Source of the DNA: Shigella phage Sfk20
Sequence record: MW341595
DNA: 64,000 nt
Strand: one strand, 5' to 3'
Within the stretch, counting starts at the first letter, position 1, and every line of letters begins with the position of its first letter. Of the stretch, positions 3,730-39,040 are shown in pieces. The notes below the pieces were generated by a model. The model was not told the origin of the DNA. It was given only the letters and a program-made list of their open reading frames with translations, and made no database searches. Made by a program: the position numbers and the translations under genes.

Positions 3730-3745
3730 AAGGGCCGAAGCCCTT
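3730..3745. terminator. perfect GC stem-loop AAGGGC-CGAA-GCCCTT overlapping the rIIB stop codon
   Basis: Palindrome read from sequence; orientation ambiguous. Confidence 0.45.
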
Positions 3746-4682
3746 ATTTAAATTGTTCAGTAACGTCTTCAACTACTTCGTATTGGCAGGTACGCATTTT
3801 AGCATCGTTGTAATCAATCGGAATTGATACTACATCGCGAGGATGTACTTTAACTTTTACAACTCGACTAGTTGAACTACCAAAGTGACGAATATAAGAT
3901 TTAGAACACACATGCAGACCACGAGAACAAGTTTGTGTATCATCATCGTTCACACGAGTACGTGGCATTTTAACTACTTTACCAGGACTGTTATCAAAAG
4001 TATTTGAATGACAGTCAAAGTAATTGCTGCGAACTACTTTCCAAGCATAGAAGTAGCCATCTTCTGTAATTTCAATATCGTTTGCTACCAAGAAATCAAA
4101 GAGTCGAGATACCGCTTTTTGGCTTGGGTTTTCCAACAGATTTTCCAGGAACGGAAAATAAAATTCAAAGTTTTCACCTTTTTCCATCGAATCGAGAATA
4201 CGATCAACTAAACCAGACCGCAATTCAATATTTTGATAGAACAAGCTTCCACCTTCAATTCGAACATCACCGGAAATATATTTTTCAACAGCGCGACGAA
4301 CATTAATTTTTTGTGCCGCTTCTTCCAATTTATCTGCAACAAGCAGATTAAGAATTTCCTGGAAGTTTGAATGAGTATTAGGAGTTGCGTTATAAGTTAC
4401 ACCGTCAACAGTAATTGAAATGAATTTTTTAGATGCATTCCAAATAATGTCAGATTTAGCAACTGGAGCAATAGCTACATCGCTATTAACTTTAACTGTA
4501 ATATCACCGCTAATAGTAACTTTAGAGCGCTCAGCTTCTTCAGCATTTTTCAAAACACGACGGATTGTGTCAACCGATACACCTTGCCAATCAGCCAATT
4601 CCTGTTGGGTATAATTACCACTTGAATACAGTTTGACAATTTCAGCTTGTTCGTTTTTGGTCAGGCATTTAATATTGTACAT
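3744..4682 (-). CDS. rIIB: rIIB protein
   Basis: 312 aa, same length as T4 rIIB and directly downstream of rIIA. Confidence 0.9.
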   Translation of the reverse strand: MYNIKCLTKNEQAEIVKLYSSGNYTQQELADWQGVSVDTIRRVLKNAEEAERSKVTISGDITVKVNSDVAIAPVAKSDIIWNASKKFISITVDGVTYNATPNTHSNFQEILNLLVADKLEEAAQKINVRRAVEKYISGDVRIEGGSLFYQNIELRSGLVDRILDSMEKGENFEFYFPFLENLLENPSQKAVSRLFDFLVANDIEITEDGYFYAWKVVRSNYFDCHSNTFDNSPGKVVKMPRTRVNDDDTQTCSRGLHVCSKSYIRHFGSSTSRVVKVKVHPRDVVSIPIDYNDAKMRTCQYEVVEDVTEQFK

Positions 4683-17713: not shown

Positions 17714-18184
17714 CTAGCGATAAAAACCAAAATGACGATTAGCTTCAATAATCTTTCTTTCTTCTTCTGACATTCTCCAGCGTAGTCCAACATCAAAATG
17801 AGCCCAGACCATCTTAACAAATGCATTTATATCTTTAATATCTTCAATAATGAATGTTTTACTTTTATAAGGTTGACTAGCTAATTTAACTTTATCGTCT
17901 TCAAACAGGTCAAAAAGACCATATTCATGAGCTCTTTTATAGCCTTTAATAGTTAAAGCTTCAGAAGAAGAAAACGGTGAATCGGTATTCTGTAAAATAT
18001 CTTCAGTATGCTTTATAATTAGAATAACATTTTCTGGATATTTTCTTTCTTTTATATCTTTAATTAAAAAATCCGGATTTTCTGCTAAAGGAATAATTAA
18101 TGAGCAATTTTTATTAAGTGTATTTACTGATTTACCTTCTTTAGACATAAATTCTATTGAATATCGTTTTGCTACTTCAATCAT
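17714..18184 (-). CDS. hypothetical protein, 156 aa
   Basis: ORF track; ATG 18182-18184. Confidence 0.5.
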
Positions 18185-18337: not shown

Positions 18338-18541
18338 TCACGATTTATCCCCATAGATGTCTCTCATCAATTTAAGCGCTGAGCGTTCTAATTTCTTTTC
18401 TTTCTCGGCACTAATCATTGATTTCATCCATTCTTCTGATTCATTCTGCATTTCTTTATTTGCTTGTTCAACCCAACCATCATCAATATACATTGAGTTT
18501 GGTCTATTGAACCATTCAAGCATTTTCTTCAGAACTTTCAT
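18338..18541 (-). CDS. hypothetical protein, 67 aa
   Basis: ORF track. Confidence 0.45.
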
Positions 18542-19013
18542 TTGTTTTACCTAAAATAACAGTAGGAGCATCATCAAATTCATGAATTTTTAGCAAATTT
18601 GGATGTAAACTATTCCATACAGAAGAAATAAAGTATGATAAAGCATCTTCACTTGCAATTATAAATTTATTTCCTTTATCTATTTTCCAACTATATACTG
18701 AATCATACGAATAAAAAGATAAAGGTTTATCATTATATTGTTCTGCGCTAACATTAATGTATTCTGATTTAGTAAATGCTTCAATTGCTCTAAATGGAAT
18801 ATTTGGTACAGTTTCAATAATACCAATCTTTTTAAGTTTTATTTCAGCATCTTCTGGAACTGGCATTGAAACGAAATTTTCTACGAGATACATTGGGTCA
18901 CAATAACCCTTATCAATCATTACTGCTACGGTAATTGGAACGTCTTTAGCAAACGACAAACTATTACTGCTAATATACATTTCAAACAAAATCGCTTCCA
19001 TAATTTTCCTCAA
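18516..19013 (-). CDS. hypothetical protein, 165 aa
   Basis: ORF track. Confidence 0.5.
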
Positions 19014-19976: not shown

Positions 19977-20495
19977 TTAATAACCTCGGTCTTGACGAGC
20001 GAAGTTTTCAGCATTTTTCAGATAATAAAGTTTAAAGATTTCTTCAGCCGTAAGACCGAGACCTTGGAACATGTTCAGAACGAAATGAAGAATATCAATC
20101 ATTTCGAATTTAATTTCCAACTGGTCTTGTGGAGATAAGTCAGTAATCAGAGTTTCACGACGTTCACCGTGTTGCGACTTCCAAGGCTTCCATACAGCAG
20201 ATGCATCTTTTTCGCCATTGCTCATACCACCAAGAGAAGTCAGAAGTTCGCGGAATTCATCATCAATATAATCTTTCTGATTACGCAGCCAATCAACAAC
20301 TTCACCTGCAGTAGCCAAATCATCAGGATGACGGTTATATTCAGGTTTATCTTTAGCTAAACGAACCTGCAGAGATTTCTGCATATCAAGCATAACTTGC
20401 AACGGATCTTTTTCATCACCGAGAATATCCCAGTATTCATTTTGAGCTTTATCAGCGCCTTCAATCAGTTGACTACATTCATTAAAGTAAGCCAT
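19977..20495 (-). CDS. 56: dCTP pyrophosphatase gp56 (MazG-like)
   Basis: ORF track 19977..20588 trimmed to ATG 20493-20495 (MAYFNECSQLIEGADKAQNEYWDILG...), 171 to 172 aa as T4 gp56; AAGGAA SD. Confidence 0.8.
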   Translation of the reverse strand: MAYFNECSQLIEGADKAQNEYWDILGDEKDPLQVMLDMQKSLQVRLAKDKPEYNRHPDDLATAGEVVDWLRNQKDYIDDEFRELLTSLGGMSNGEKDASAVWKPWKSQHGERRETLITDLSPQDQLEIKFEMIDILHFVLNMFQGLGLTAEEIFKLYYLKNAENFARQDRGY

Positions 20496-20529
20496 TATTT
20501 TTCCTTTCAATTCATGGGTTAGTAGATTA

Positions 20530-20553
20530 ATTATACAATAAATATATAAAGCA
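20530..20553 (-). promoter_or_regulatory. candidate MotA-dependent middle promoter upstream of 56
   Basis: Reverse complement TGCTTTA-11 nt-TATAAT. Confidence 0.5.
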
Positions 20554-20566
20554 ATAAGGAGGACAT

Positions 20567-20767
20567 ATGGTACAAAAATTAATGGCACTTGTTAATGCCA
20601 TAAAAGGTAATAAAAAACGTATAGCTTTTACTATTTCTGCTATGGTAGGAATTTTACTCTGGAATTTTGTTTTATCACCAATTGCTATTGCTCATGGTGT
20701 TAATATTCCAGTAATTACTCTTGATACATTCGTAGATTTAGCATTTGCTTTGGTTGGGTTAATTTAA
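20567..20767 (+). CDS. small membrane protein, 66 aa, plus strand
   Basis: ORF track; AAGGAGGA 5 nt before ATG; two hydrophobic segments; convergent with gene 61, stop codons overlap. Confidence 0.4.
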   Translation: MVQKLMALVNAIKGNKKRIAFTISAMVGILLWNFVLSPIAIAHGVNIPVITLDTFVDLAFALVGLI

Positions 20768-21792
20768 ATCTTAGCATATTTAGATAGCCGCATTTTAGCC
20801 ATCAACCCTTGGGCAATATTATTTTTCATATATTCCATAATTTGTTCAGGGGTTGCACCTTCCTTTCTAATCATATCATTAACATCTTTTGATTTCCAGG
20901 GAGATTTATCCCAAAACATAACCCTTTCTCCTGCATCAACTAATTTAGTCATTCGTTTAATAGTGTCAGGGTGACGAGGTTCATTATCTAAAACCCACAC
21001 ACGTCTATCTTTAAATGGAACAATTTCTAGGTCTAATTGACCACCCGTAATAGCTATACCATTTTCAATAAAAAGTGAATCTATAGGTCCTTCTAGAACA
21101 TATACATCACCATCTTTGACTCGTTCAACTCCATAGATTTTTGTTGCCTCAGGATAAGCTTTGATGGTGATATATTTTTGAGGAGCATCTTTCTTTAATG
21201 CACGTCCTTGAAAAGACTCGGCTTTTCCGTTAGCGTTATAAATTGGAATAACAAGACGAGGCTCGGGCATTTCCTTTTTATATGTTCCTGGCGCTATACT
21301 ATTAACTAATTTAGGCCATTCGGTTGTAAACCAAAGATATTTCCATTTATTCTTTGGAATACAACGAGCTTTTACATATTTTATAATTGGATGGTCTTCC
21401 GCCAGTTTATCTAATCTAATGCATGACGGAAGAGATTTAATTATTTTCTTCTCAGGTTGTTTAGGAAGTTCTTTAGGTTTTTCTACTGGACGACTTTTAC
21501 CTTTTTCTTTTCTTATTTCAAAGATATACTCACGATATAAATCAGGTTCAAACTCCTTTAAATATATTCCAATTGGTGCATGATAGTTACAGTTATAACA
21601 ATGAATATTTCCTTCATTATTATCGCCATAATACCATCCACGGGCTTTATTTTGATCGGTTTTTGAATCTCCACAAACAGGGCATCTAAACCGTAATTTA
21701 AAAGTTGAACTATTATTTACTTGTGCGAATTTAGGTAAATGAGCCAATGCACGGTATGCAAACTCATTATCAATCCAAGGTATTGATGACAT
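20764..21792 (-). CDS. 61: DNA primase gp61
   Basis: 342 aa as T4 gp61; zinc-binding CPVCGDS...CYNC and Toprim-like region. Confidence 0.95.
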   Translation of the reverse strand: MSSIPWIDNEFAYRALAHLPKFAQVNNSSTFKLRFRCPVCGDSKTDQNKARGWYYGDNNEGNIHCYNCNYHAPIGIYLKEFEPDLYREYIFEIRKEKGKSRPVEKPKELPKQPEKKIIKSLPSCIRLDKLAEDHPIIKYVKARCIPKNKWKYLWFTTEWPKLVNSIAPGTYKKEMPEPRLVIPIYNANGKAESFQGRALKKDAPQKYITIKAYPEATKIYGVERVKDGDVYVLEGPIDSLFIENGIAITGGQLDLEIVPFKDRRVWVLDNEPRHPDTIKRMTKLVDAGERVMFWDKSPWKSKDVNDMIRKEGATPEQIMEYMKNNIAQGLMAKMRLSKYAKI

Positions 21793-21794
21793 TT

Positions 21795-21959
21795 TTACTC
21801 TTCTTTTTCTTTAGATTCCTCTTTTTTCTTTTTAGGAATCTGTTCAGGACCTTTATTTACTACAGCGCCTGACGTTGTTCCAGTAGAGATATTTTCAGGA
21901 TTACCACCTGAATCTCCAGCTACCATATCTTCTTTGATAAATTCTTTAAACGTTTTCAT
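21795..21959 (-). CDS. small hypothetical protein (61.1 position), 54 aa
   Basis: Hand-translated MKTFKEFIKEDMVAGDSGGNPENISTGTTSGAVVNKGPEQIPKKKKEESKEKEE. Confidence 0.35.
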   Translation of the reverse strand: MKTFKEFIKEDMVAGDSGGNPENISTGTTSGAVVNKGPEQIPKKKKEESKEKEE

Positions 21960-21971
21960 ATTAGCCTCTAA

Positions 21972-22265
21972 TTATTCACCTACCACTTCAGCGATGATAT
22001 TTTTATTATTAAAGTTTTTATCGCAATACAGAACATAATTATACTGCATTACACCACCAGACTTAAGCTGTTTTTGCACTTCGGCTTTCATTTCAGGGCG
22101 ATCACGCTCAACGATATTCATAATATCTGCTTCAATTTGAGTTTCAACCTCAGTCTGATCTGCAGTCATAGACCATTCACACAAATCTTTGTCATAACCC
22201 GCCATAGCAGGCTGAGCAGCACAAGAAGATAAAGCAAAAATTGTAGCAAAGATAAATTTTTTCAT
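21972..22265 (-). CDS. sp: Spackle periplasmic protein
   Basis: 97 aa, same length and position as T4 Sp; N-terminal signal peptide MKKFIFATIFALSSCAAQPAMA. Confidence 0.7.
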   Translation of the reverse strand: MKKFIFATIFALSSCAAQPAMAGYDKDLCEWSMTADQTEVETQIEADIMNIVERDRPEMKAEVQKQLKSGGVMQYNYVLYCDKNFNNKNIIAEVVGE

Positions 22266-22291
22266 GATAATCTCCTCAGTAGTTTATGTTT

Positions 22292-22320
22292 ATAGTATCT
22301 CAATTTCTAATAAAAGTAAA
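22292..22320 (-). promoter_or_regulatory. early (sigma70-type) promoter upstream of sp
   Basis: Reverse complement TTTACT-17 nt-TACTAT. Confidence 0.55.
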
Positions 22321-22323
22321 CAG

Positions 22324-22623
22324 TTATTTTAAAACTTCTGCATAATCACATGTTACAAACTGTTTCTCTAACTTGGCGATTTTACGAAAGTATCTTTTGC
22401 ATTGACGAATCTGTCGCTTTGTAGGGCGCACAGCAAACTTAATAAATTCCACTCGACCAAATGGAGGGCTTTCTTCTGCCGGAATATCTAATACTAATTC
22501 CCACGTATCTGCAATAAGTGCTTTGAATTGAGTATTTTTCCTGACGTTATACGGTGTAGGTTTAAATAAAACAATATGCATATTATCCTCGGCAATCCAC
22601 TTCGCATACTTTCTTGTCATCAA
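22324..22623 (-). CDS. hypothetical protein (61.4 position), 99 aa
   Basis: ORF track; synteny only. Confidence 0.45.
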   Translation of the reverse strand: MMTRKYAKWIAEDNMHIVLFKPTPYNVRKNTQFKALIADTWELVLDIPAEESPPFGRVEFIKFAVRPTKRQIRQCKRYFRKIAKLEKQFVTCDYAEVLK

Positions 22624-22765
22624 TGAAAGCTTTAACTAATGCTTTATTAACTTCAGCATATTGAGTAGTAGCCCATTGAACGTCATCTTTCATCATTGTG
22701 ATTTCTTTAGTAAACATGCTTTCATTCTTAAACCACCCCATAAAAACTACCTTTACCAATTCCAT
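22583..22765 (-). CDS. dmd: Dmd-like protein (61.5 position), 60 aa
   Basis: 60 aa, same length and position immediately upstream of gene 41 as T4 Dmd. Confidence 0.6.
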   Translation of the reverse strand: MELVKVVFMGWFKNESMFTKEITMMKDDVQWATTQYAEVNKALVKAFIDDKKVCEVDCRG

Positions 22766-22794
22766 AACAATCTCCTCATTTAACCAACAAGACT

Positions 22795-22823
22795 ACTATA
22801 CCATAGTCTTGTCGGCTTGTAAA
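22795..22823 (-). promoter_or_regulatory. early (sigma70-type) promoter upstream of dmd
   Basis: Reverse complement TTTACA-17 nt-TATAGT. Confidence 0.6.
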
Positions 22824-24251
22824 CTAAAATTTTAATTCATTTGCCAAAGCATCTAACTGAGCTCGAGCTGATTCGTTTCTTTGATAGCGATTCTGTTCAG
22901 CCTGAATCTGCTGTGAACCTGCTACTTCGTTCACTTCGGTTGGAGTAGAATCTTGCTCAATTTCTACCCATTTTTGATTTCCTTTTTGAACACCCATCAA
23001 AAACTTATTCCATTTATTCTTATCACCATATCGTGATTTGATTTGCTTAATGAGTTGTTGTTCAGCGGCTGCTAACTCCTCGGTTTCAATGACCGCAAGC
23101 ATAAAATCGGCTGTTGCTGGAAGACCGGCAGATTCTGCAATATCGCTCATGTTAACATCAGAAGAATCCCAAGCTTGTTTACCAACTTGTGCTGCGGTCC
23201 AAAGAACAGTTTCGGTTTCAACAGCCAGAGCACGCAATTCCTCTGCGATAGCTTTAACAGTTGTGTAACTATTTTCTGAATAAACTCTAATGCGGCAAGA
23301 TTTACAAATACCCAGATAGTCAACAATAATGATTGTTGGAACAAAATTCTTCTTGAGCTTCAATTCATTCAAGAGAGACCTGAATGTATTAGCGTCTGCT
23401 CCACCAGTAGGATACTGTTTAACGATTAAACGGCCGAGAGTAGATTTCTCACGCCATTTTTCCATTTTTCCTTTATACTCAGCGTAAGAAATATGCCCAT
23501 CATCAATGTCATCAAGAGAAACATCAAGCATATTAGCATCAATACGCTTAGCACAGACTTCTTCTGCCATTTCCATGGAAATGTAAAGAACATTATGTCC
23601 GAGCTGCAAATAATCTGCTGCCAATGAACACAATCCTAATGACTTACCGACGTTAACACCAGCCATTAAAACGTTCAGTGTTCCAGTTTCAGCTCCGCCT
23701 TTAGTAATTTTATTTAGAATTTTGAGTCTAAATGGAACCTTACGAGCTTTATTCATATAAGATAGCCAACGTGCTTCGTAGTCATCCATCCAATCATGAC
23801 CAACGTAACTATCAAATGAAATTGATAATGCTTGGCGCATGATGTCAGGAATAGCACCAACATCCGGCATTTTCTTATTTCGTTTTTCCGGAGGAAGCTC
23901 AGCATTAGTTTGAATTTCAATTATTTTAGATGTGGCGTTAAACATCGCCCTTTGCTGAACATATTTTTCTGTTTCTTTTACTAACCAGCTGTGGTCTTCT
24001 GGAGAATCGGCTAGTTTCGAAATAAGTGTTTTTACACCAGAATATTCTGTTTCAGTAAATGAACTATTTTCTAATGCAACATTTAACGCATTAATAGATG
24101 GAACGCTATGGTACTCATTAACATGAGATTTAATTAATTTGAATGTATTTTTAGCTGGACCACTTTCAAAATATTCTGAATCCATATATGGCCAAACTTT
24201 TGAAAAATAAGCTTGATCAAATATGAGATGAGAAAGAATAATTTCTACCAC
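22824..24251 (-). CDS. 41: replicative DNA helicase gp41 (DnaB-like)
   Basis: 475 aa as T4 gp41; Walker A GVNVGKS. Confidence 0.95.
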   Translation of the reverse strand: MVEIILSHLIFDQAYFSKVWPYMDSEYFESGPAKNTFKLIKSHVNEYHSVPSINALNVALENSSFTETEYSGVKTLISKLADSPEDHSWLVKETEKYVQQRAMFNATSKIIEIQTNAELPPEKRNKKMPDVGAIPDIMRQALSISFDSYVGHDWMDDYEARWLSYMNKARKVPFRLKILNKITKGGAETGTLNVLMAGVNVGKSLGLCSLAADYLQLGHNVLYISMEMAEEVCAKRIDANMLDVSLDDIDDGHISYAEYKGKMEKWREKSTLGRLIVKQYPTGGADANTFRSLLNELKLKKNFVPTIIIVDYLGICKSCRIRVYSENSYTTVKAIAEELRALAVETETVLWTAAQVGKQAWDSSDVNMSDIAESAGLPATADFMLAVIETEELAAAEQQLIKQIKSRYGDKNKWNKFLMGVQKGNQKWVEIEQDSTPTEVNEVAGSQQIQAEQNRYQRNESARAQLDALANELKF

Positions 24252-24260
24252 ACTTACTCC

Positions 24261-24605
24261 TTAAAAGAATTTAAATTTTTTCTTTGACCTTTTATTAAAT
24301 GCATCTTGTAGCTGCATTGTAATACATTTTTCTACATGAGGAGCTAACTCAGCTTTTCTTTCTTGGTCAAGAACAGCAAAGTCCATTACGACTTTTCCAT
24401 CAACCCAATCTAATTTTGTCACATACACAATGTGTGTAGAACCGTCTTCTAGTTTAATGACAATCTCCTGGATAACATTTTCCATGGCAGATTTAATTAT
24501 CTTAAGAGATTCATTAAAAAGACGTTCTTTTCTTTCTTCTTCCCCCTCCGAAGAGGGGGATTCGTCGATAATTTCTAGATCTAAATCCAAATCATCTTTA
24601 TTCAT
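24261..24605 (-). CDS. 40: gp40 head-assembly accessory protein
   Basis: ORF track 24261..24623 trimmed to in-frame ATG 24603-24605; 114 aa as T4 gp40; start overlaps uvsX stop. Confidence 0.65.
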   Translation of the reverse strand: MNKDDLDLDLEIIDESPSSEGEEERKERLFNESLKIIKSAMENVIQEIVIKLEDGSTHIVYVTKLDWVDGKVVMDFAVLDQERKAELAPHVEKCITMQLQDAFNKRSKKKFKFF

Positions 24606-25779
24606 TAAATTCTTCCATATCACTTAACTGATCTAGGTCAGTTTCTAAATCAGCTGCTGATTTACTTTTACTTTCTGGAGATTTAAATTTTTCAACCTTT
24701 GAGTTAATCAATTCATCAACTTCAGCTTCAACAATTTCATTACTATCAATAGCACCTAACTGATAAGCGCGTTTAATAGCATCTCGGAATGGTTGATGCT
24801 TAAATAAAGGACCCCAGAATGTAGTGCAGTTGGTATCTTTTGCACGCCAAGATTTTTCTTCGCGAATCATCTCGCCGGTTTCTTCGTCAAGAAATTCACG
24901 AGCATACCAGCCATTTTTAGGTTTTACCACAAATCCTAATTCAAGAGCCATATCTAACAATCCAGAATAAGGATCGATACCACCGTCAAATTTAACATCA
25001 ATAAAGAATTTACTTTTTTCTTTAACAGTGCGAGATTTTTCTACATTTAGAACAAATTGATACCCCTGAAGATCAGAACCATCTTTAATCTGGCGCTTAC
25101 CGATAATGAATACAGTATCAGCCGAATACATTACGCCTGTACCACCTGTCATCACGGTTTTACTAAACATTTCAATGGTTTCAATTGTATGGTTAACCGC
25201 AACACATGGAATGTTTTTAATACTAAAATAAGGAGTAACAATACGGAATAATGACTTCAGTGATTTAGCACGAGTCATATCTGCCACAGATTTTTCATTT
25301 AAGGCATCTTCCGTTTCTTTCTTAGAAGCCATATTACCAATTGAGTCGATGAATACAATAACTTTTTCACCGCGCTCAATAGCTTCAAGCTGATTCACCA
25401 TATCAATTTTCAGCTGTTCAACTGACTGAATTGGTGTATGAATTACTCGTTCCGGGTCAACTCCCATGGATCGCAAATAAGCTGGAGTAATACCAAATTC
25501 GCTATCATAAAATAGACATACCGCGTCAGGATATTTGTTCAAATACGCCGCAACCATAGTCAAAGACATATTTGATTTAAAGTGTTTAGAAGGACCTGCA
25601 AAAATGGTTAAACCAGACTGCATACCACCATCAATCGCACCAGAAATAGCGATATTAAGCATTGGGATTTTTGTACGGATTACATCCTTTTCATTAAAGA
25701 ATTTAGATGTAGTCAGTTCAGCAGTCATTTTAGAAGTGGAAGCTTTAATCAAACGGGATTTTAAATCTGCAATAGACAT
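24598..25779 (-). CDS. uvsX: UvsX recombinase (RecA-like)
   Basis: 393 aa; sequence recognised as T4 UvsX-like. Confidence 0.95.
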   Translation of the reverse strand: MSIADLKSRLIKASTSKMTAELTTSKFFNEKDVIRTKIPMLNIAISGAIDGGMQSGLTIFAGPSKHFKSNMSLTMVAAYLNKYPDAVCLFYDSEFGITPAYLRSMGVDPERVIHTPIQSVEQLKIDMVNQLEAIERGEKVIVFIDSIGNMASKKETEDALNEKSVADMTRAKSLKSLFRIVTPYFSIKNIPCVAVNHTIETIEMFSKTVMTGGTGVMYSADTVFIIGKRQIKDGSDLQGYQFVLNVEKSRTVKEKSKFFIDVKFDGGIDPYSGLLDMALELGFVVKPKNGWYAREFLDEETGEMIREEKSWRAKDTNCTTFWGPLFKHQPFRDAIKRAYQLGAIDSNEIVEAEVDELINSKVEKFKSPESKSKSAADLETDLDQLSDMEEFNE

Positions 25780-25856
25780 TCATTTTTTCCATAGGCAACA
25801 TTATATTTTCCTCACTGGTTAAAGATAGAATAATTATAACACAATAAATTTAGGCA

Positions 25857-26705
25857 TTAATCAACTGCTATTGGATGAATAGCATTAAACTTATGAAACG
25901 CTTCTGATTTTTCTTTGCGCGAAACACACATGCGAAGAACCTTTAATGGCTCGTCTTCTTCACCCAACGATTTTCTCTTTTCAATATTCGATGTTTTCCA
26001 ACGAGCTTGCTCTGGAAACTCTCTATTGATTTGCTCAAGAGCTCTATTATGTTTTGAATTACTACGAATTGAACTGCACCCGCCAGGAGCTTGCGCTTTT
26101 CCGGATACAACCAGATATTTGAACAAGGCCAAATGCGGATAACCTTGATTAATTAAATTGAGAAATGCATACATATCTTCGCATAAATCAATTTTTCCAT
26201 ACCCAATTTGTTCTGTTGTAAGTTTTCCGAGGTCATACCAAGTATTCGTGAATCCATATGAATTTTCACGATAATTACCCCAAGATGAAGTAATTTTAAA
26301 AATTGGTAAACGAGCATGACCATGATAATACCCGCAATCCATGGCATCTTCAACGTATTGAATCAATTCATAGAACTGTTCACGAGTTAACTGATTAATT
26401 TTATCTACGCAGCGACGATCATCTTTCTTTCGCATTGAACTCATACGAATAGTAGTATCATCATCAATCATCCAAATTCGTTGACCTGCATACATATCAG
26501 TAATTGCTTTACGAGTACCAGCAATTCCATTAACATCATCAGGAATAGTTATAATTTTAGCTCTAGACCCGTAAGCGTCATAATAAGCTTTTTCTTCGTG
26601 TTCACGTACTACAATATGAGGTTCATAATCAGTCGGAAACATATCAAGGGCAGAAACTGCCCCTACGCGTTGATAGCTTGGAATTACGAATTGAATCATT
26701 TCCAC
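25857..26705 (-). CDS. putative glycosyltransferase occupying the beta-gt locus (candidate beta-alpha glucosyltransferase), 282 aa
   Basis: Position between uvsX and 42; sequence does not match remembered T4 beta-gt (351 aa); DxD-like MIDDD motif. Confidence 0.5.
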   Translation of the reverse strand: MEMIQFVIPSYQRVGAVSALDMFPTDYEPHIVVREHEEKAYYDAYGSRAKIITIPDDVNGIAGTRKAITDMYAGQRIWMIDDDTTIRMSSMRKKDDRRCVDKINQLTREQFYELIQYVEDAMDCGYYHGHARLPIFKITSSWGNYRENSYGFTNTWYDLGKLTTEQIGYGKIDLCEDMYAFLNLINQGYPHLALFKYLVVSGKAQAPGGCSSIRSNSKHNRALEQINREFPEQARWKTSNIEKRKSLGEEDEPLKVLRMCVSRKEKSEAFHKFNAIHPIAVD

Positions 26706-27436
26706 TCACCATTATAATCTTTTTTCGCAATATGAGTTTCGCCAGTTTTCCACCAATGGTCAACCAAATAAAAATGACGGGAATACACATGAAGGCTTCC
26801 GACATTCCATATAATGGAACCTGCTTTATACTGACGAGTTGAATCACCTGCATTCAAATCAGATACTAATTTATCTAGTACGTATTTTTGCCATGCATAA
26901 TCATTACGGAATCCGAAGACCACGTCATTTGAACGCATGCTTACTACTGCATTGACTTTCTTATCACGAATCAGGTACTGTACTGTATTCGTACACATGA
27001 AATCTGACATACCATCTTTATTGTAGTCAAACTGCATGGATGGACGAGTATAAATCATGATACCACGTCGAGAATCAGGATTTTGACCAAGTTCAGCTAA
27101 ACACATATCATACTGGGCATAGTTATCTTCTGACCAGATGGCCCAACCATAATTCGAGTTAATTTCGCCTTTAGAAGATGCTACCTGTTGCCAAATCTTC
27201 GGTGTTTCACCCGGAATATCTTTAACAAACAAACTTTTAGATTTATACCATTCAAGTTCACGCTGAATGTATTCATCATTAAGAGCGCCAAAAATAAACG
27301 GTTCATCTGCTACAAATGATGCGCCAATAATTTCAATAGTTTTAACGCCAGTTTTATCAATTACGAAATCTTTTTCCTTTAACGCAATTCCCAAATGAAG
27401 ACGAGTTTCTTCAACTGTCAAAGAGTCATTAATCAT
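26696..27436 (-). CDS. 42: dCMP hydroxymethylase gp42
   Basis: 246 aa as T4 gp42; sequence recognised. Confidence 0.95.
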   Translation of the reverse strand: MINDSLTVEETRLHLGIALKEKDFVIDKTGVKTIEIIGASFVADEPFIFGALNDEYIQRELEWYKSKSLFVKDIPGETPKIWQQVASSKGEINSNYGWAIWSEDNYAQYDMCLAELGQNPDSRRGIMIYTRPSMQFDYNKDGMSDFMCTNTVQYLIRDKKVNAVVSMRSNDVVFGFRNDYAWQKYVLDKLVSDLNAGDSTRQYKAGSIIWNVGSLHVYSRHFYLVDHWWKTGETHIAKKDYNGEWK

Positions 27437-27443
27437 TTAAACC

Positions 27444-27593
27444 TCAATTGATACATTCATATTTAACTTGTAACAGTAATAAACTCCACCCTATAATAAG
27501 CGTTGGAATCATACAAGGAACCGTTACGCTATAGTATATACTTATTATAATCATCAAGATTAAAAGCAATACTGTTAAAATTTTGCTTTTCAT
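27444..27593 (-). CDS. small membrane peptide, 49 aa
   Basis: Hand-translated MKSKILTVLLLILMIIISIYYSVTVPCMIPTLIIGWSLLLLQVKYECIN; ATGA overlap with imm stop; GAAGGA SD. Confidence 0.35.
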   Translation of the reverse strand: MKSKILTVLLLILMIIISIYYSVTVPCMIPTLIIGWSLLLLQVKYECIN

Positions 27594-27841
27594 TCCTTCT
27601 CTCTGATGATAATTACTTGATTTGGTTGTGCGGATTTTTTAGTTTCACCCGCAATTGACCAAATAAATGTAATAAACCAACCAATAATTGACCAGTTAAA
27701 CAGTAAAGATGTAAAAAAGATTCCTACTGTCGATTTTGACCCGCGCATCAAGGCGATGAACCATGGAAGCATGTATATAATAATAGCCAACACGCCTGAT
27801 ACTAAAACCATAAAAATTGAACCTGCTACTAAAGTTTCCAT
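27590..27841 (-). CDS. imm: Imm superinfection immunity membrane protein
   Basis: 83 aa as T4 Imm; two hydrophobic helices. Confidence 0.9.
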   Translation of the reverse strand: METLVAGSIFMVLVSGVLAIIIYMLPWFIALMRGSKSTVGIFFTSLLFNWSIIGWFITFIWSIAGETKKSAQPNQVIIIREKE

Positions 27842-27848
27842 GCTTTCC

Positions 27849-28229
27849 TCACTTAGTCAAATTTTTTACACATGAATTATAAGAATTCACTACATACTCC
27901 ATCGGAGCATTTTTACCTGTGCGCCATTGGTAATTATTAGCCCAATTAGCCCAAAGTTCGGCGCAGTAGTTTTCAATTTTTTCTTCGCGTGTAATTACAT
28001 CTGAATTACGATATGCTTGAGCAGATTCATCTGGACGAATAGCTTCGTCAAAATTCGCCTGCATTTGTTCTACTGTCTGTTTTGGAGCCTCTTTATAACA
28101 CTTAACATTAGGATTATAAAATTTGCTTGAACAATTTACAATTTTTCCTGCATCAGACTGATTTACTACCGGTCCTTGAGCTACACAACCAGTAAGACCC
28201 AATGCAATAACCAAAATAGCGATTTTCAT
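27849..28229 (-). CDS. putative lipoprotein (imm.1 position), 126 aa
   Basis: ORF track trimmed to ATG 28227-28229; MKIAILVIALGLTGC... lipobox; GGAG SD in conserved leader. Confidence 0.55.
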   Translation of the reverse strand: MKIAILVIALGLTGCVAQGPVVNQSDAGKIVNCSSKFYNPNVKCYKEAPKQTVEQMQANFDEAIRPDESAQAYRNSDVITREEKIENYCAELWANWANNYQWRTGKNAPMEYVVNSYNSCVKNLTK

Positions 28230-28263
28230 TTCATTCTCCAAATCTGTATCAGTTGATAGTTAT

Positions 28264-28292
28264 ATAGTACCAAAGAGGAACAGTCTTGTAAA
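28264..28292 (-). promoter_or_regulatory. early (sigma70-type) promoter with conserved leader
   Basis: Reverse complement TTTACA-17 nt-TACTAT. Confidence 0.6.
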
Positions 28293-28382
28293 CAGTTTTG
28301 TGAAAAATTTTTTAATGAATTCCAAAGGTCCAGAATCATCTATTTTTTCCTAAGTATAGATTTATATTACTTGTATGAAAAA

Positions 28383-28398
28383 GGGACCCGGAGGTCCC
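28383..28398 (-). terminator. rho-independent terminator downstream of gene 43
   Basis: Stem gggacc/ggtccc, loop cgga, then U-run on the minus strand. Confidence 0.6.
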
Positions 28399-28411
28399 CA
28401 GATTTATTCTA

Positions 28412-31108
28412 TCAGCCAAACAGGAAGTCTAACGAAGCTTTTTCCTCATAGTCCATACCTGCCGATTCACACATACCAGCAAGAGGTTTAACAAACGATT
28501 TTTGGAACAAAGTTGAGTAGTCAATCCAAGACAGTACGTCAGAACGAATTTCTTTTGGAAGTTCTGTACCCGACGGCCAAGCAATGCACTTGTCACCAAA
28601 CGGATTTCCTTCGCGTAATGGAAGAACCATTACCTTATTTCCATCCAAAATTGGAGCTACACCTAAACCGCTAACAGCTCGACGATAAGTTAGCACACCG
28701 CGAATATGGAACGGGCATTTAAATCCTGGCCAGCCTTTATCATCATATTTCGCTATATCGTTCGCAGTTTTTACTTCAGCAATAACTTTATAGTCAAGTT
28801 GACGATATTCTTTCTCAAAGTTCTTGTAGTATTCTTGGACAGACTCTTCACCTTCCTGAAGAATACGACGAATACTTTCTTCGAGAGCTTCTTGTACTGC
28901 TTTTGGTGTTGAACTCTGTTGAGTTTCCATACCCATGATTTTTAAATGCGGTTCGGCAAATCGCTTATCTTCCATATCATAAACGTTCAGAGCATAACGT
29001 TTTTTCGCTTTCCAAAATCCACCAACACCCTTTGAACCAAGTGGAGGGCAAGAAATAGCTTCACGGTCCATATGCATCAGATGCTCGCGGTTATTCATAT
29101 AATCACATAACTCACGATATGCAACATCAATCATAGGTTCCATCTTTTTCTTACCAAACTGATTCATGAATTCAACTAAATCATTTTGTTCTTTAAAGCG
29201 ATCAAGACCTACTTTTTCAATAACTTTATCTACACAAACATATACCGAATCAGTATCACCTGCTGCGATGAAATCTTCACCATTAGTTCCACATACTTTA
29301 TTTAGATACTCATTAATTTTACGAGCAATCCATTGAATACCGACTTGACCGAAAATTGTGATAGCAGTAGCATTTCGCAAATCATAGTAGCGAAAATGAA
29401 TATTACCAAGAGCACCATAAAGACTGTTAATAAGAATTTTACGGTTCAGCTGATTTGTGTTAGCAAGCGTAGCTGCTTTTTCACATTCTTCGATCAGACT
29501 ATTAAGAACAGATTCAGTGTAATTCGATAATTCGTTTAAGAAATCATCATTGAACTTAACATATCGTTCAACTTCCGGTTTAGTTGAACAGGACCCTGCA
29601 CCTTTCATAATAATCTTTTTAATAGCTTCGGCATTCATTTCTTCCGCGAACATTTTCTTTTTCCAATCTTTACGCTGGAAAAATACTTTAGCGATTTCCT
29701 TTGGAATGATACCTTCTTGGTGCTTATCATACATCCATCCATTCGGAGAGCAAGAATATTCATCACTTGGCTTAGGAGCTGTTCCTGCGATATATTCATG
29801 AATTGGATGAACTTTAAACTGCCCACGAATAGTCTCAGGACTAATGTTAACCTGACGAATAATGCTAGGATACAGAGACGTCAAGTCAAAACTCATAATG
29901 TATCGACGAGCAATCGGTTTAGGTTCAAACACAAATGCACCTGGAAAACTCTGTTTAACGTGCGAACCTTGTTGAGGAATAACCTTATGTTCACCTTTCA
30001 GTGAGTTAAAAATAATAGCATCCCAAGTTTTAATAGGACTCATTACACCAGAAAAAGGCATTTTAGCGTAATAAGACATACTTAAAACTAGATCGATAAA
30101 CCCACGAATTTTATCAATTGCTTGAACTGATTCTACGTCAATGATGTTATAACTAATGTATCGTTGATGATTAGTCTCACGAAGTTTATTAATAGGACCA
30201 TCGTACGGCAATTTACCTTTTTTGGTTTCATGTTGAGCAACTGATTCCAAAGAGAACGATGGCAAATTAGTAAATGCGAATTTCTTGTACAAATCTAAAT
30301 AATCAAGAATAGATACGCCATCAATAGAATAAATTTCTTTACTACCGTACATATTTTGAATTAGTTTAGATTTTACTCGACCGATTGGAGAGAAGCGTTT
30401 CATACTACGTTCACCGAGAACCATTTTAACACGATTCATGATATACGGAACGTCAAATCCCTCAATATTCCAACCGGTAAAAATAGCAGGTCGTTTCTGT
30501 TCCCAGAGATTAATATATTCCATGAGCATATCACGCTCATTATCAAATGGCATATAAATTACTCGGTCAAGAATTTCTTGAGGAACTTCATCACCACCTT
30601 CACAGTCAAGCTTAGCAGCTAACTTTGCGTCCCATTTTGATACTGAACCGTACATTGAATTCAACAAATCAAAGACGTAAAAACGGTCGTCAATTGAATC
30701 ATAATGAGTGATAGCATCAATTTCATATTCTGCTTTCATTGGGTCAGGAAATTTATCACCAGTAACCTCAATGTCACAGTTAGCTACACGAACAAATTTT
30801 CGGTCATAAACAATTTCTGAACCATATGTATCACTGATATAAGCGAGTTTAAAATCGTTCATACCGAGAGCTTCGAGACCGATGTCTTCCATTCGCTTCA
30901 TCCAGTCTCGTGCATCTTTCATTGATGGAAATTTTTGAGGAGCACAGTTTTTACCATAAATGTCTTTGTACTTTGACTCTTCCTTACAATGCCTAAACAT
31001 AGTCGGAAGATATTCTACTTCACGAGTACGTTCCTTTCCATTTTCATCAATATAACGCTCAACAATATTATTTCCGACTGTTTCGATAGAGATATAAAAT
31101 TCTTTCAT
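28412..31108 (-). CDS. 43: DNA polymerase gp43 (family B)
   Basis: 898 aa as T4 gp43; sequence recognised (exonuclease and polymerase motifs incl. YGDTDS). Confidence 0.97.
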   Translation of the reverse strand: MKEFYISIETVGNNIVERYIDENGKERTREVEYLPTMFRHCKEESKYKDIYGKNCAPQKFPSMKDARDWMKRMEDIGLEALGMNDFKLAYISDTYGSEIVYDRKFVRVANCDIEVTGDKFPDPMKAEYEIDAITHYDSIDDRFYVFDLLNSMYGSVSKWDAKLAAKLDCEGGDEVPQEILDRVIYMPFDNERDMLMEYINLWEQKRPAIFTGWNIEGFDVPYIMNRVKMVLGERSMKRFSPIGRVKSKLIQNMYGSKEIYSIDGVSILDYLDLYKKFAFTNLPSFSLESVAQHETKKGKLPYDGPINKLRETNHQRYISYNIIDVESVQAIDKIRGFIDLVLSMSYYAKMPFSGVMSPIKTWDAIIFNSLKGEHKVIPQQGSHVKQSFPGAFVFEPKPIARRYIMSFDLTSLYPSIIRQVNISPETIRGQFKVHPIHEYIAGTAPKPSDEYSCSPNGWMYDKHQEGIIPKEIAKVFFQRKDWKKKMFAEEMNAEAIKKIIMKGAGSCSTKPEVERYVKFNDDFLNELSNYTESVLNSLIEECEKAATLANTNQLNRKILINSLYGALGNIHFRYYDLRNATAITIFGQVGIQWIARKINEYLNKVCGTNGEDFIAAGDTDSVYVCVDKVIEKVGLDRFKEQNDLVEFMNQFGKKKMEPMIDVAYRELCDYMNNREHLMHMDREAISCPPLGSKGVGGFWKAKKRYALNVYDMEDKRFAEPHLKIMGMETQQSSTPKAVQEALEESIRRILQEGEESVQEYYKNFEKEYRQLDYKVIAEVKTANDIAKYDDKGWPGFKCPFHIRGVLTYRRAVSGLGVAPILDGNKVMVLPLREGNPFGDKCIAWPSGTELPKEIRSDVLSWIDYSTLFQKSFVKPLAGMCESAGMDYEEKASLDFLFG

Positions 31109-37821: not shown

Positions 37822-37839
37822 AAAGGGCCGAAGCCCTTT
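37822..37839. terminator. GC stem-loop AAAGGGC-CGAA-GCCCTTT overlapping the alpha-gt stop
   Basis: Palindrome read from sequence. Confidence 0.45.
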
Positions 37840-39040
37840 ATTTTGTAATAATGTCAAACTGTTCTTTAAAGCAGAAGCTTGAATCTTGATGCTGATACAA
37901 AAATTCATAAGCTTTTTCGCGTTCACGGTCATAAAGATTTCGGTCAGATGACAGTTCTTTAATACGCTCAAATGTTGATTCCATGTCATTTTCATCAAAC
38001 CAAACGATACCGCTATCATGAGAAATTAACGGAGTATTATCAACACGGAATTTTAAATTTTCGCCAGTAGATTTCCAAAATACTGGAATTGTTCCACATG
38101 CACCAAGCTCGAGATGAGTATATTCTAAAGAACGTTGTAGATATTTTTTATCCAACTTACTCAGCTGATAACCAAATCCGGATTTACTCATGCGTTCAAG
38201 CATTTCGCTATTTACATAACGGTCAAGAATTTGCGTTGGCAAATTAGGAGCAATTTTAATTTGGTCTACTTGATGAAGACGATAATACTCATATGGAATT
38301 CCTTTTTCTTTAATAGGAATGAACGCAGGAGAACGTTCCAGACCTTCCATAATAGTACTTAGCCCAGCAGGTTTAAGATGTTTTTCGTGAAAATCAAACA
38401 TCTGATAAAAACCTTTCCATGTAGTCGTACGACCAATCCAACGGTTGACATTCATGTTAATTTCAGAAACATCTTTCCAGTAGGTTGATCGAACTTTCGC
38501 AATATCCATAGGAGGCTGAAAGTTGTATACGGTCGGTGCTTCTTCAATATCATCAAACAGAGAAACGGTTTCTGGATACCATTCTTTCATCAGAACTTTA
38601 TTAAAATCACCATTATCAGAATGACTAAAAATAACATCTGCTCGACGAACAGTTTCTTCTAATCCCAAATTTCGGCGCAAAGAAAGAGAAGAATGGTCAT
38701 GTTGATAAACTACAACACGAACCGAAGGTTTAATGTTATCAATAATTTTTTTATAGTTATTAATAGTGTCTTCTTCGACTGAAGTAGCAGGAACTGAATT
38801 GATAATTAGAATATCACAATCATTTACCAGCTTAAGTGTTTTATCGTATTCTTTTGCCAATAAAACCGGAATTGAAAATGATTTATAATCATGCGCGCAA
38901 TTACGGGTAAATGATTTATCTTTAGCATAAACCAAAGTTACTTCATGACCATTTTTAATAAACCAATCACGCTGCTCGAGAGAAAATTTAGTTACGCCGC
39001 AACCTTCAAGACCTCGAGCCATAAAAATGCATACTTTCAT
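37838..39040 (-). CDS. a-gt: alpha-glucosyltransferase (hydroxymethylcytosine DNA)
   Basis: 400 aa; MKVCIFMARGLEGCGVTKFSLEQRDWFIKNGHEVTLVYAKDK... recognised as T4 alpha-gt-like. Confidence 0.9.
   Translation of the reverse strand: MKVCIFMARGLEGCGVTKFSLEQRDWFIKNGHEVTLVYAKDKSFTRNCAHDYKSFSIPVLLAKEYDKTLKLVNDCDILIINSVPATSVEEDTINNYKKIIDNIKPSVRVVVYQHDHSSLSLRRNLGLEETVRRADVIFSHSDNGDFNKVLMKEWYPETVSLFDDIEEAPTVYNFQPPMDIAKVRSTYWKDVSEINMNVNRWIGRTTTWKGFYQMFDFHEKHLKPAGLSTIMEGLERSPAFIPIKEKGIPYEYYRLHQVDQIKIAPNLPTQILDRYVNSEMLERMSKSGFGYQLSKLDKKYLQRSLEYTHLELGACGTIPVFWKSTGENLKFRVDNTPLISHDSGIVWFDENDMESTFERIKELSSDRNLYDREREKAYEFLYQHQDSSFCFKEQFDIITK

Follow-up and report, generated by a model that had tools for sequence, protein, structure and literature searches.

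A T2/T6-type beta-glucosyl-HMC-alpha-glucosyltransferase gene in the beta-gt slot of Shigella phage Sfk20

Introduction

In phage T4 the beta-glucosyltransferase gene, beta-gt, lies between uvsX and gene 42. What does the same interval encode in Shigella phage Sfk20? A preliminary description of the stretch analysed here (64,000 nt of record MW341595; hereafter the window), made from the letters alone, had placed a glycosyltransferase-like gene there and had pointed to phages T2 and T6. The T2/T6 gene, known as ba-gt or ggt, is said to have been cloned by Winkler and Rueger in 1993. As that description noted, its product makes beta-1,6-glucosyl-alpha-glucosyl (gentiobiosyl) 5-hydroxymethylcytosine (hmC) in T2 and T6, and the literature bears this out (PMC6024577, PMC13216743). 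Here we confirm that this interval of Sfk20 holds ba-gt of the T2/T6 type, a gene already known, ordinary for T4-like coliphages, annotated in hundreds of genomes and studied by genetic and chemical means in relatives.

Organization of the slot between uvsX and gene 42

The list of open reading frames agrees with the position given earlier: ba-gt lies between uvsX and gene 42, on the same strand as both, with its start overlapping the gene 42 stop (Table 1). When window positions 24000-28500 were compared by blastn with T4 positions 21000-31000, only two matches were obtained, at 24001-25767 (90.4%) and 26714-28500 (94.6%). On the uvsX side, similarity to T4 breaks off about four codons into the gene (25767); on the other side it returns at 26714, within the final 18 nt of gene 42. 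The layout of the slot in T2, T6 and RB32 is the same as in the window. Tblastn searches of the whole window with T4 beta-gt and T4 segA gave best E values of only 1.2 and 5.0, respectively. GC content is uniform across the region (0.33-0.39), so the composition gives no hint that foreign DNA was recently inserted. That another gene occupies the beta-gt slot stands as a statement of position; it does not stand as one of functional replacement, since the enzyme acts on the product of alpha-gt and not on bare hmC.

Table 1. Location of ba-gt, its flanking genes and its partner genes in the window
Feature	Position	Strand	Description
Stretch without DNA similarity to T4	25768..26713	.	946 bp; stands where T4 has 1941-bp segA + beta-gt
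uvsX recombinase, downstream flank of the slot	24598..25779	-	ORF; syntenic with annotated uvsX in T2, T6 and ECP2301
ba-gt / ggt / TAGT CDS, beta-glucosyl-HMC-alpha-glucosyltransferase	25857..26699	-	280 aa; ORF, ATG start from homologues and ATGA overlap
Gene 42, dCMP hydroxymethylase	26696..27436	-	246 aa, full length; PHROG 160 thymidylate-synthase family, E 6.8e-66
Gene 56, dCTPase/dUTPase	19977..20588	-	PHROG 173 nucleoside triphosphate pyrophosphohydrolase, E 3.1e-46
alpha-gt, DNA alpha-glucosyltransferase	37838..39040	-	400-aa ORF; Pfam AGT PF11440, E 1.6e-235, profile 1-354/355

Where the T4-type slot (segA with beta-gt) is exchanged for the T2/T6-type one (ba-gt), the borders are sharp and fall within conserved flanking genes (window 25768-26713; compared T4 segment 2557-4497). 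The T4 slot also bears the homing endonuclease gene segA, of which the window slot is free. In the T4 version a GIY-YIG homing endonuclease gene adjoins beta-gt, and such a gene might help the T4 cassette to spread during mixed infections.

Start codon and expression signals of ba-gt

The ORF as listed runs over 25857..26705 on the minus strand and encodes 282 aa from a GTG start. In all annotated homologues inspected (ECP2301, two records of T2, T6 AP018814 and RB32) the start is at the ATG that corresponds to position 26699, two codons inside the listed GTG, and all database homologues have N-termini of the form MIQF... or M..IQF.... The ba-gt ATG and the TGA stop of gene 42 share the sequence ATGA: gene 42 ends in ...GGT GAG TGG AAA TGA and ba-gt begins with ATG ATT CAA..., with GAGTGG 4 nt ahead of the ATG. 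Because of the annotated starts of the homologues, their MIQF N-termini and the ATGA overlap, we moved the start to 26699. Judged from these sequence features ba-gt is best placed at 25857..26699, and the length of 282 aa in the preliminary description is corrected to 280 aa. Through the ATGA overlap, translation of ba-gt is probably coupled to that of gene 42.

A scan for sigma-70 promoters around ba-gt, which leaves T4-type early, middle and late promoters outside its scope, found no more sites than shuffled sequences would give (12 vs. 9.6 +/- 3.6 expected) and carries no information on expression. Within codons 12-19 of ba-gt there is a G+C-rich hairpin (26645-26665, minus strand; GGGGCAG-TTT-CTGCCCT) with up to 9 pairs and a weak T-rich tail after it. 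This hairpin is kept in T2 and T6, and in the annotation of phage DalCa it is a rho-independent terminator. It is indistinguishable from chance in the terminator scan (2 sites vs. 1.0 +/- 1.0 expected) and by its fold z-score of -1.5; attenuation of ba-gt with respect to gene 42 by this hairpin is conceivable in principle.

Identity and distribution of the protein

The preliminary description had proposed a profile search against glycosyltransferase families and a comparison with T2 and T6, and both were carried out. The protein matches PHROG 842 'beta-glucosyl-HMC-alpha-glucosyltransferase' from end to end (E 1.9e-89), and Pfam PF20691 (TAGT, TET-associated glycosyltransferase) over positions 2-205 of the 205 in the profile, with 38.8 bits against a curated gathering cut-off of 27.5 (E 1.2e-09). 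BLASTP showed 276 of 280 residues identical to the T2 ggt product (MH751506) and 256 of 261 identical to the annotated T6 product (MH550421), which makes it a close orthologue of both; in ECP2301 the amino-acid sequence is identical and the CDS bears the same name as the PHROG. At the same time, T4 beta-gt did not match the protein (best BLASTP E 3.4), as had been noted before, and the Pfam search gave no match to the beta-GT family PF09198. The proposal of a glycosyltransferase-like gene of the T2/T6 type is thus upheld by a near-identical (98-99% aa) orthologue in the same slot, by PF20691 and PHROG 842, and by the GT-A model described below.

At a threshold of at least 90% nucleotide identity, megablast found the gene in 479 phage records, mostly Tequatrovirus isolates of Escherichia, Shigella and Yersinia, and the 24-kb neighbourhood is approximately 98% identical to phages ECp13, ESh16 and pSs-1. 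The rarity implied for this arrangement was not borne out: within the genus, most phages are organized in this way. It is alpha-GT together with beta-GT that is rare, found in only 6 of 753 transferase-bearing phage genomes (T4 and close relatives), and the usual state among the 753 is alpha-GT or beta-GT, plus TAGT (PMC13216743).

Predicted fold and conserved motifs

The 280-aa protein contains the motifs IPSYQR (residues 6-11), DDD (79-81) and E174-D175. Eleven homologues, the most distant at 29% identity, came from one search of a large protein collection, and most of them had a precomputed PF20691 assignment. In an alignment of nine homologues with the window protein, I6, P7, S8, Y9, R11, D79, D80, D81 and D175 are invariant and E174 nearly so. 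An AlphaFold2 model, built from a shallow alignment of homologues, reached a mean pLDDT of 70.7 and a pTM of 0.75. Strands and helices alternate in the model, and DDD follows the strand 74-79; the protein combines a DxD metal/nucleotide-sugar motif behind a beta-strand with an N-terminal IPxY(N/Q). From this model, the fold is predicted to be GT-A (nucleotide-diphospho-sugar transferase) and not GT-B. IPSYQR and DDD also align, in a weak match, to IPTYNR and DDDD of the GT2 enzyme 9jma_A. A PDB search with the single protein sequence gave chance matches only (E >= 0.78), so by sequence the ba-gt family has no solved structure.

The TAGT family of Pfam has a GT-A fold and is sister to GT2, and the window protein shares with it the full-profile match, the predicted GT-A fold and DDD. 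It differs in its setting: hmC of the T-even phages comes from dCMP hydroxymethylase (gene 42) and not from a TET/JBP oxygenase, and the acceptor of ba-gt is a sugar already on the DNA. With T4 beta-glucosyltransferase (PF09198, GT63) ba-gt has in common the slot, UDP-glucose, a beta linkage and phage hmC DNA. The two differ in that their sequences are unrelated, the T4 enzyme has a GT-B fold vs. the predicted GT-A fold, and the T4 acceptor is bare hmC vs. alpha-glucosyl-hmC for ba-gt.

Partner genes and the proposed modification pathway

The enzymes that make the acceptor, dCMP hydroxymethylase and alpha-gt, are encoded together with ba-gt. The alpha-gt gene is clearly present, as first described, with a full-length match to its family. 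Gene 42 lies in a region with 94.6% nucleotide identity to T4, and its counterparts in T2, T6 and T4 carry the annotation dCMP hydroxymethylase. Gene 56 is listed from a GTG, and its true start is probably internal. With alpha-gt, a full-length gene 42 and a gp56-type gene, the window holds the steps that supply alpha-glucosyl-hmC. The protein's identity, family and predicted fold, its synteny and the presence of its partner genes are established here, and we are highly confident that the gene encodes a T2/T6-type beta-glucosyl-HMC-alpha-glucosyltransferase acting in the gentiobiosyl-hmC pathway. The partners are those of T2 and T6 (alpha-gt, 42 and 56), where ba-gt likewise encodes 280 aa and lies in the gene 42-uvsX slot with the ATGA overlap.

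In the pathway that we propose, ba-gt would be transcribed leftward together with early replication genes. The gp56 and gp42 proteins would swap dCTP for hm-dCTP, gp56 keeping dCTP out of phage DNA and gene 42 supplying hm-dCMP, and hmC would enter the DNA at replication. The alpha-gt product would then add glucose from UDP-glucose in alpha linkage, giving the alpha-glucosyl-hmC acceptor, and ba-gt, as a GT-A-fold, GT2-like, inverting enzyme, would place a second glucose from UDP-glucose onto the alpha-glucose in beta-1,6 linkage to give gentiobiosyl-hmC. The bulkier sugar may guard the DNA against readers of mono-alpha-glucosyl-hmC (the Brig1 glycosylase and the BapA deglucosylase), and not against GmrSD-type enzymes. 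For the chemistry and the defence effects we rely on published work with T2, T6 and relatives, and we infer by analogy that they hold in Sfk20, and to what extent.

In that literature, T6 with ba-gt deleted has alpha-glucosyl-hmC only; its DNA is cut by Brig1 in vitro and is a BapA substrate, and in vivo the phage is more sensitive to Brig1 (PMC11078745, PMC13160076). Gentiobiosyl DNA remains a target of GmrSD (PMC13216743). The earlier expectation that the second glucose changes sensitivity to glucose-specific defences is thus borne out for Brig1 and BapA, while GmrSD still targets the DNA (PMC11078745, PMC13160076, PMC13216743). The gentiobiosyl share of hmC is ~5% in T2 and ~72% in T6, with bare hmC at ~25% in both (PMC6024577, PMC11078745, PMC13160076, PMC13216743). 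Ten field Tequatrovirus isolates with alpha-GT and TAGT and without beta-GT, analysed by HPLC/MS, fell into two patterns: hmdC, alpha-glucosyl and alpha-gentiobiosyl forms at ~1:2:2, or about one third hmdC and two thirds gentiobiosyl (PMC13390438).

For DNA hypermodification the window represents a Tequatrovirus of the T2/T6 type and not of the T4 type, for which alpha-glucosyl- and gentiobiosyl-hmC, some bare hmC and no beta-glucosyl-hmC are predicted. Such a modification matters for how sensitive the phage is to Brig1, Brig3/BapA, GmrSD/BrxU, restriction enzymes and CRISPR nucleases, as well as for the behaviour of the DNA in sequencing and cloning. The assignment is a useful annotation for phage-therapy and host-range work and opens no new question.

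Comparison with the alleles of laboratory T2 and T6

The T2 protein differs from that of the window at four residues (R11H, K92R, I101V and P251S in T2) and the T6 protein at five (Y40N, D55G, K92R, I101V and R106H in T6). The positions that separate the window protein from T6 are variable among homologues. Both T2 records carry R11H at an invariant column inside IPSYQR (CGT to CAT; window 26667-26669) and P251S at a nearly invariant column. The exact sequence of the first 60 nt of the T2 gene was found by megablast of the phage collection in only eight records, seven named T2 and one SV76; in the next match tier RB32 differs from it by the single CGT/CAT change and has Arg11. A degenerate DNA pattern searched in IMG/VR found H11 in no contig and R11 in 3, a number of T-even contigs too small to be informative.

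The two public T6 genomes have different changes in ba-gt, both apparently damaging. MH550421 has a TAG (amber) at codon 10 (~3951-3953 of the compared segment, minus strand; window 26670-26672), where the window has CAA and AP018814 has CAG. Because of this amber codon the annotated CDS of that record begins at Met20 (261 aa), and a product started there would be without the first strand and IPSYQR. In AP018814 one GAT is missing from the GATGATGAT run (~3735-3745 of the compared segment, minus strand; window 26457-26465), which turns the invariant DDD into DD and gives 279 aa.

The window allele is free of R11H and P251S and of the lesions of the two T6 records, and agrees with the consensus at all invariant columns. 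From these comparisons we suggest, tentatively and with considerable doubt, that it is a consensus and presumably fully active ba-gt, and that the T2 and T6 laboratory strains carry private changes. It is a guess that R11H may lie behind the low gentiobiosyl content of T2. If R11H were hypomorphic, it would explain the sixty-year-old observation of ~5% gentiobiosyl-hmC in T2 vs. 72% in T6, and Sfk20 would be predicted to be gentiobiosyl-rich, as the field isolates are.

Alternative readings

The ba-gt orthologue might contribute little in Sfk20, with DNA carrying mostly mono-alpha-glucosyl-hmC and bare hmC and a few per cent gentiobiosyl. T2 is the precedent, as it has a 99%-identical gene yet only ~5% gentiobiosyl-hmC (PMC6024577, PMC11078745), and the level therefore depends on factors invisible in gene presence. 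As near-identical enzymes accompany 5% in T2 vs. 72% in T6, the amount of gentiobiosyl-hmC in Sfk20 is not derivable from sequence. We consider a low contribution unlikely, however: the two T2 substitutions at conserved columns are absent from the window allele, and ten of ten field Tequatrovirus isolates measured had ~40-67% gentiobiosyl-hmC (PMC13390438).

A TAGT-family transferase with a donor or acceptor other than those of the T2/T6 enzyme, e.g., one using another sugar or acting directly on hmC, is very improbable. The family shows much diversity, and TAGT homologues occur in many phages that have neither alpha- nor beta-GT (PMC13216743), but the few differences to T2 (4/280) and T6 (5/261), those to T6 at variable positions, and the same synteny and partner genes speak for the T2/T6 specificity. 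We give practically no credence to a T4-type beta-glucosyltransferase (GT-B, PF09198) that has diverged or been truncated and acts on bare hmC: its only support is the position in the T4 beta-gt slot, and it is ruled out by the lack of similarity to T4 beta-gt, the lack of a Pfam beta-GT match and the predicted GT-A fold. Equally far-fetched is the reading that the ORF encodes something other than a glycosyltransferase, or is no genuine gene; it is ruled out by family, fold and orthology, by its occurrence in 479 phage records and by motifs kept down to 29% identity.

Neighbouring genes

Between gene 56 and a 342-aa ORF (20764..21792), which we take to be the primase gene 61, there is a gap of only ~175 bp (window 20589-20763), so there is no room at this place for a gene such as dam. 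The Tequatrovirus isolates of one study that had no Dam-like gene in the examined region formed the gentiobiosyl-rich group (PMC13390438). The Mrh transcription-modulator family PHROG 1234 is matched by two neighbouring ORFs on the minus strand, 17714-18184 (156 aa; E 5.6e-52) and 18516-19013 (165 aa; E 1.5e-61), suggestive of paralogues in tandem. A 49-aa hydrophobic ORF (27444-27593, minus strand) sits between imm and gene 42; it overlaps the imm stop, matches PHROG 3610 (E 1.7e-25) and is called 42.1 in RB32.
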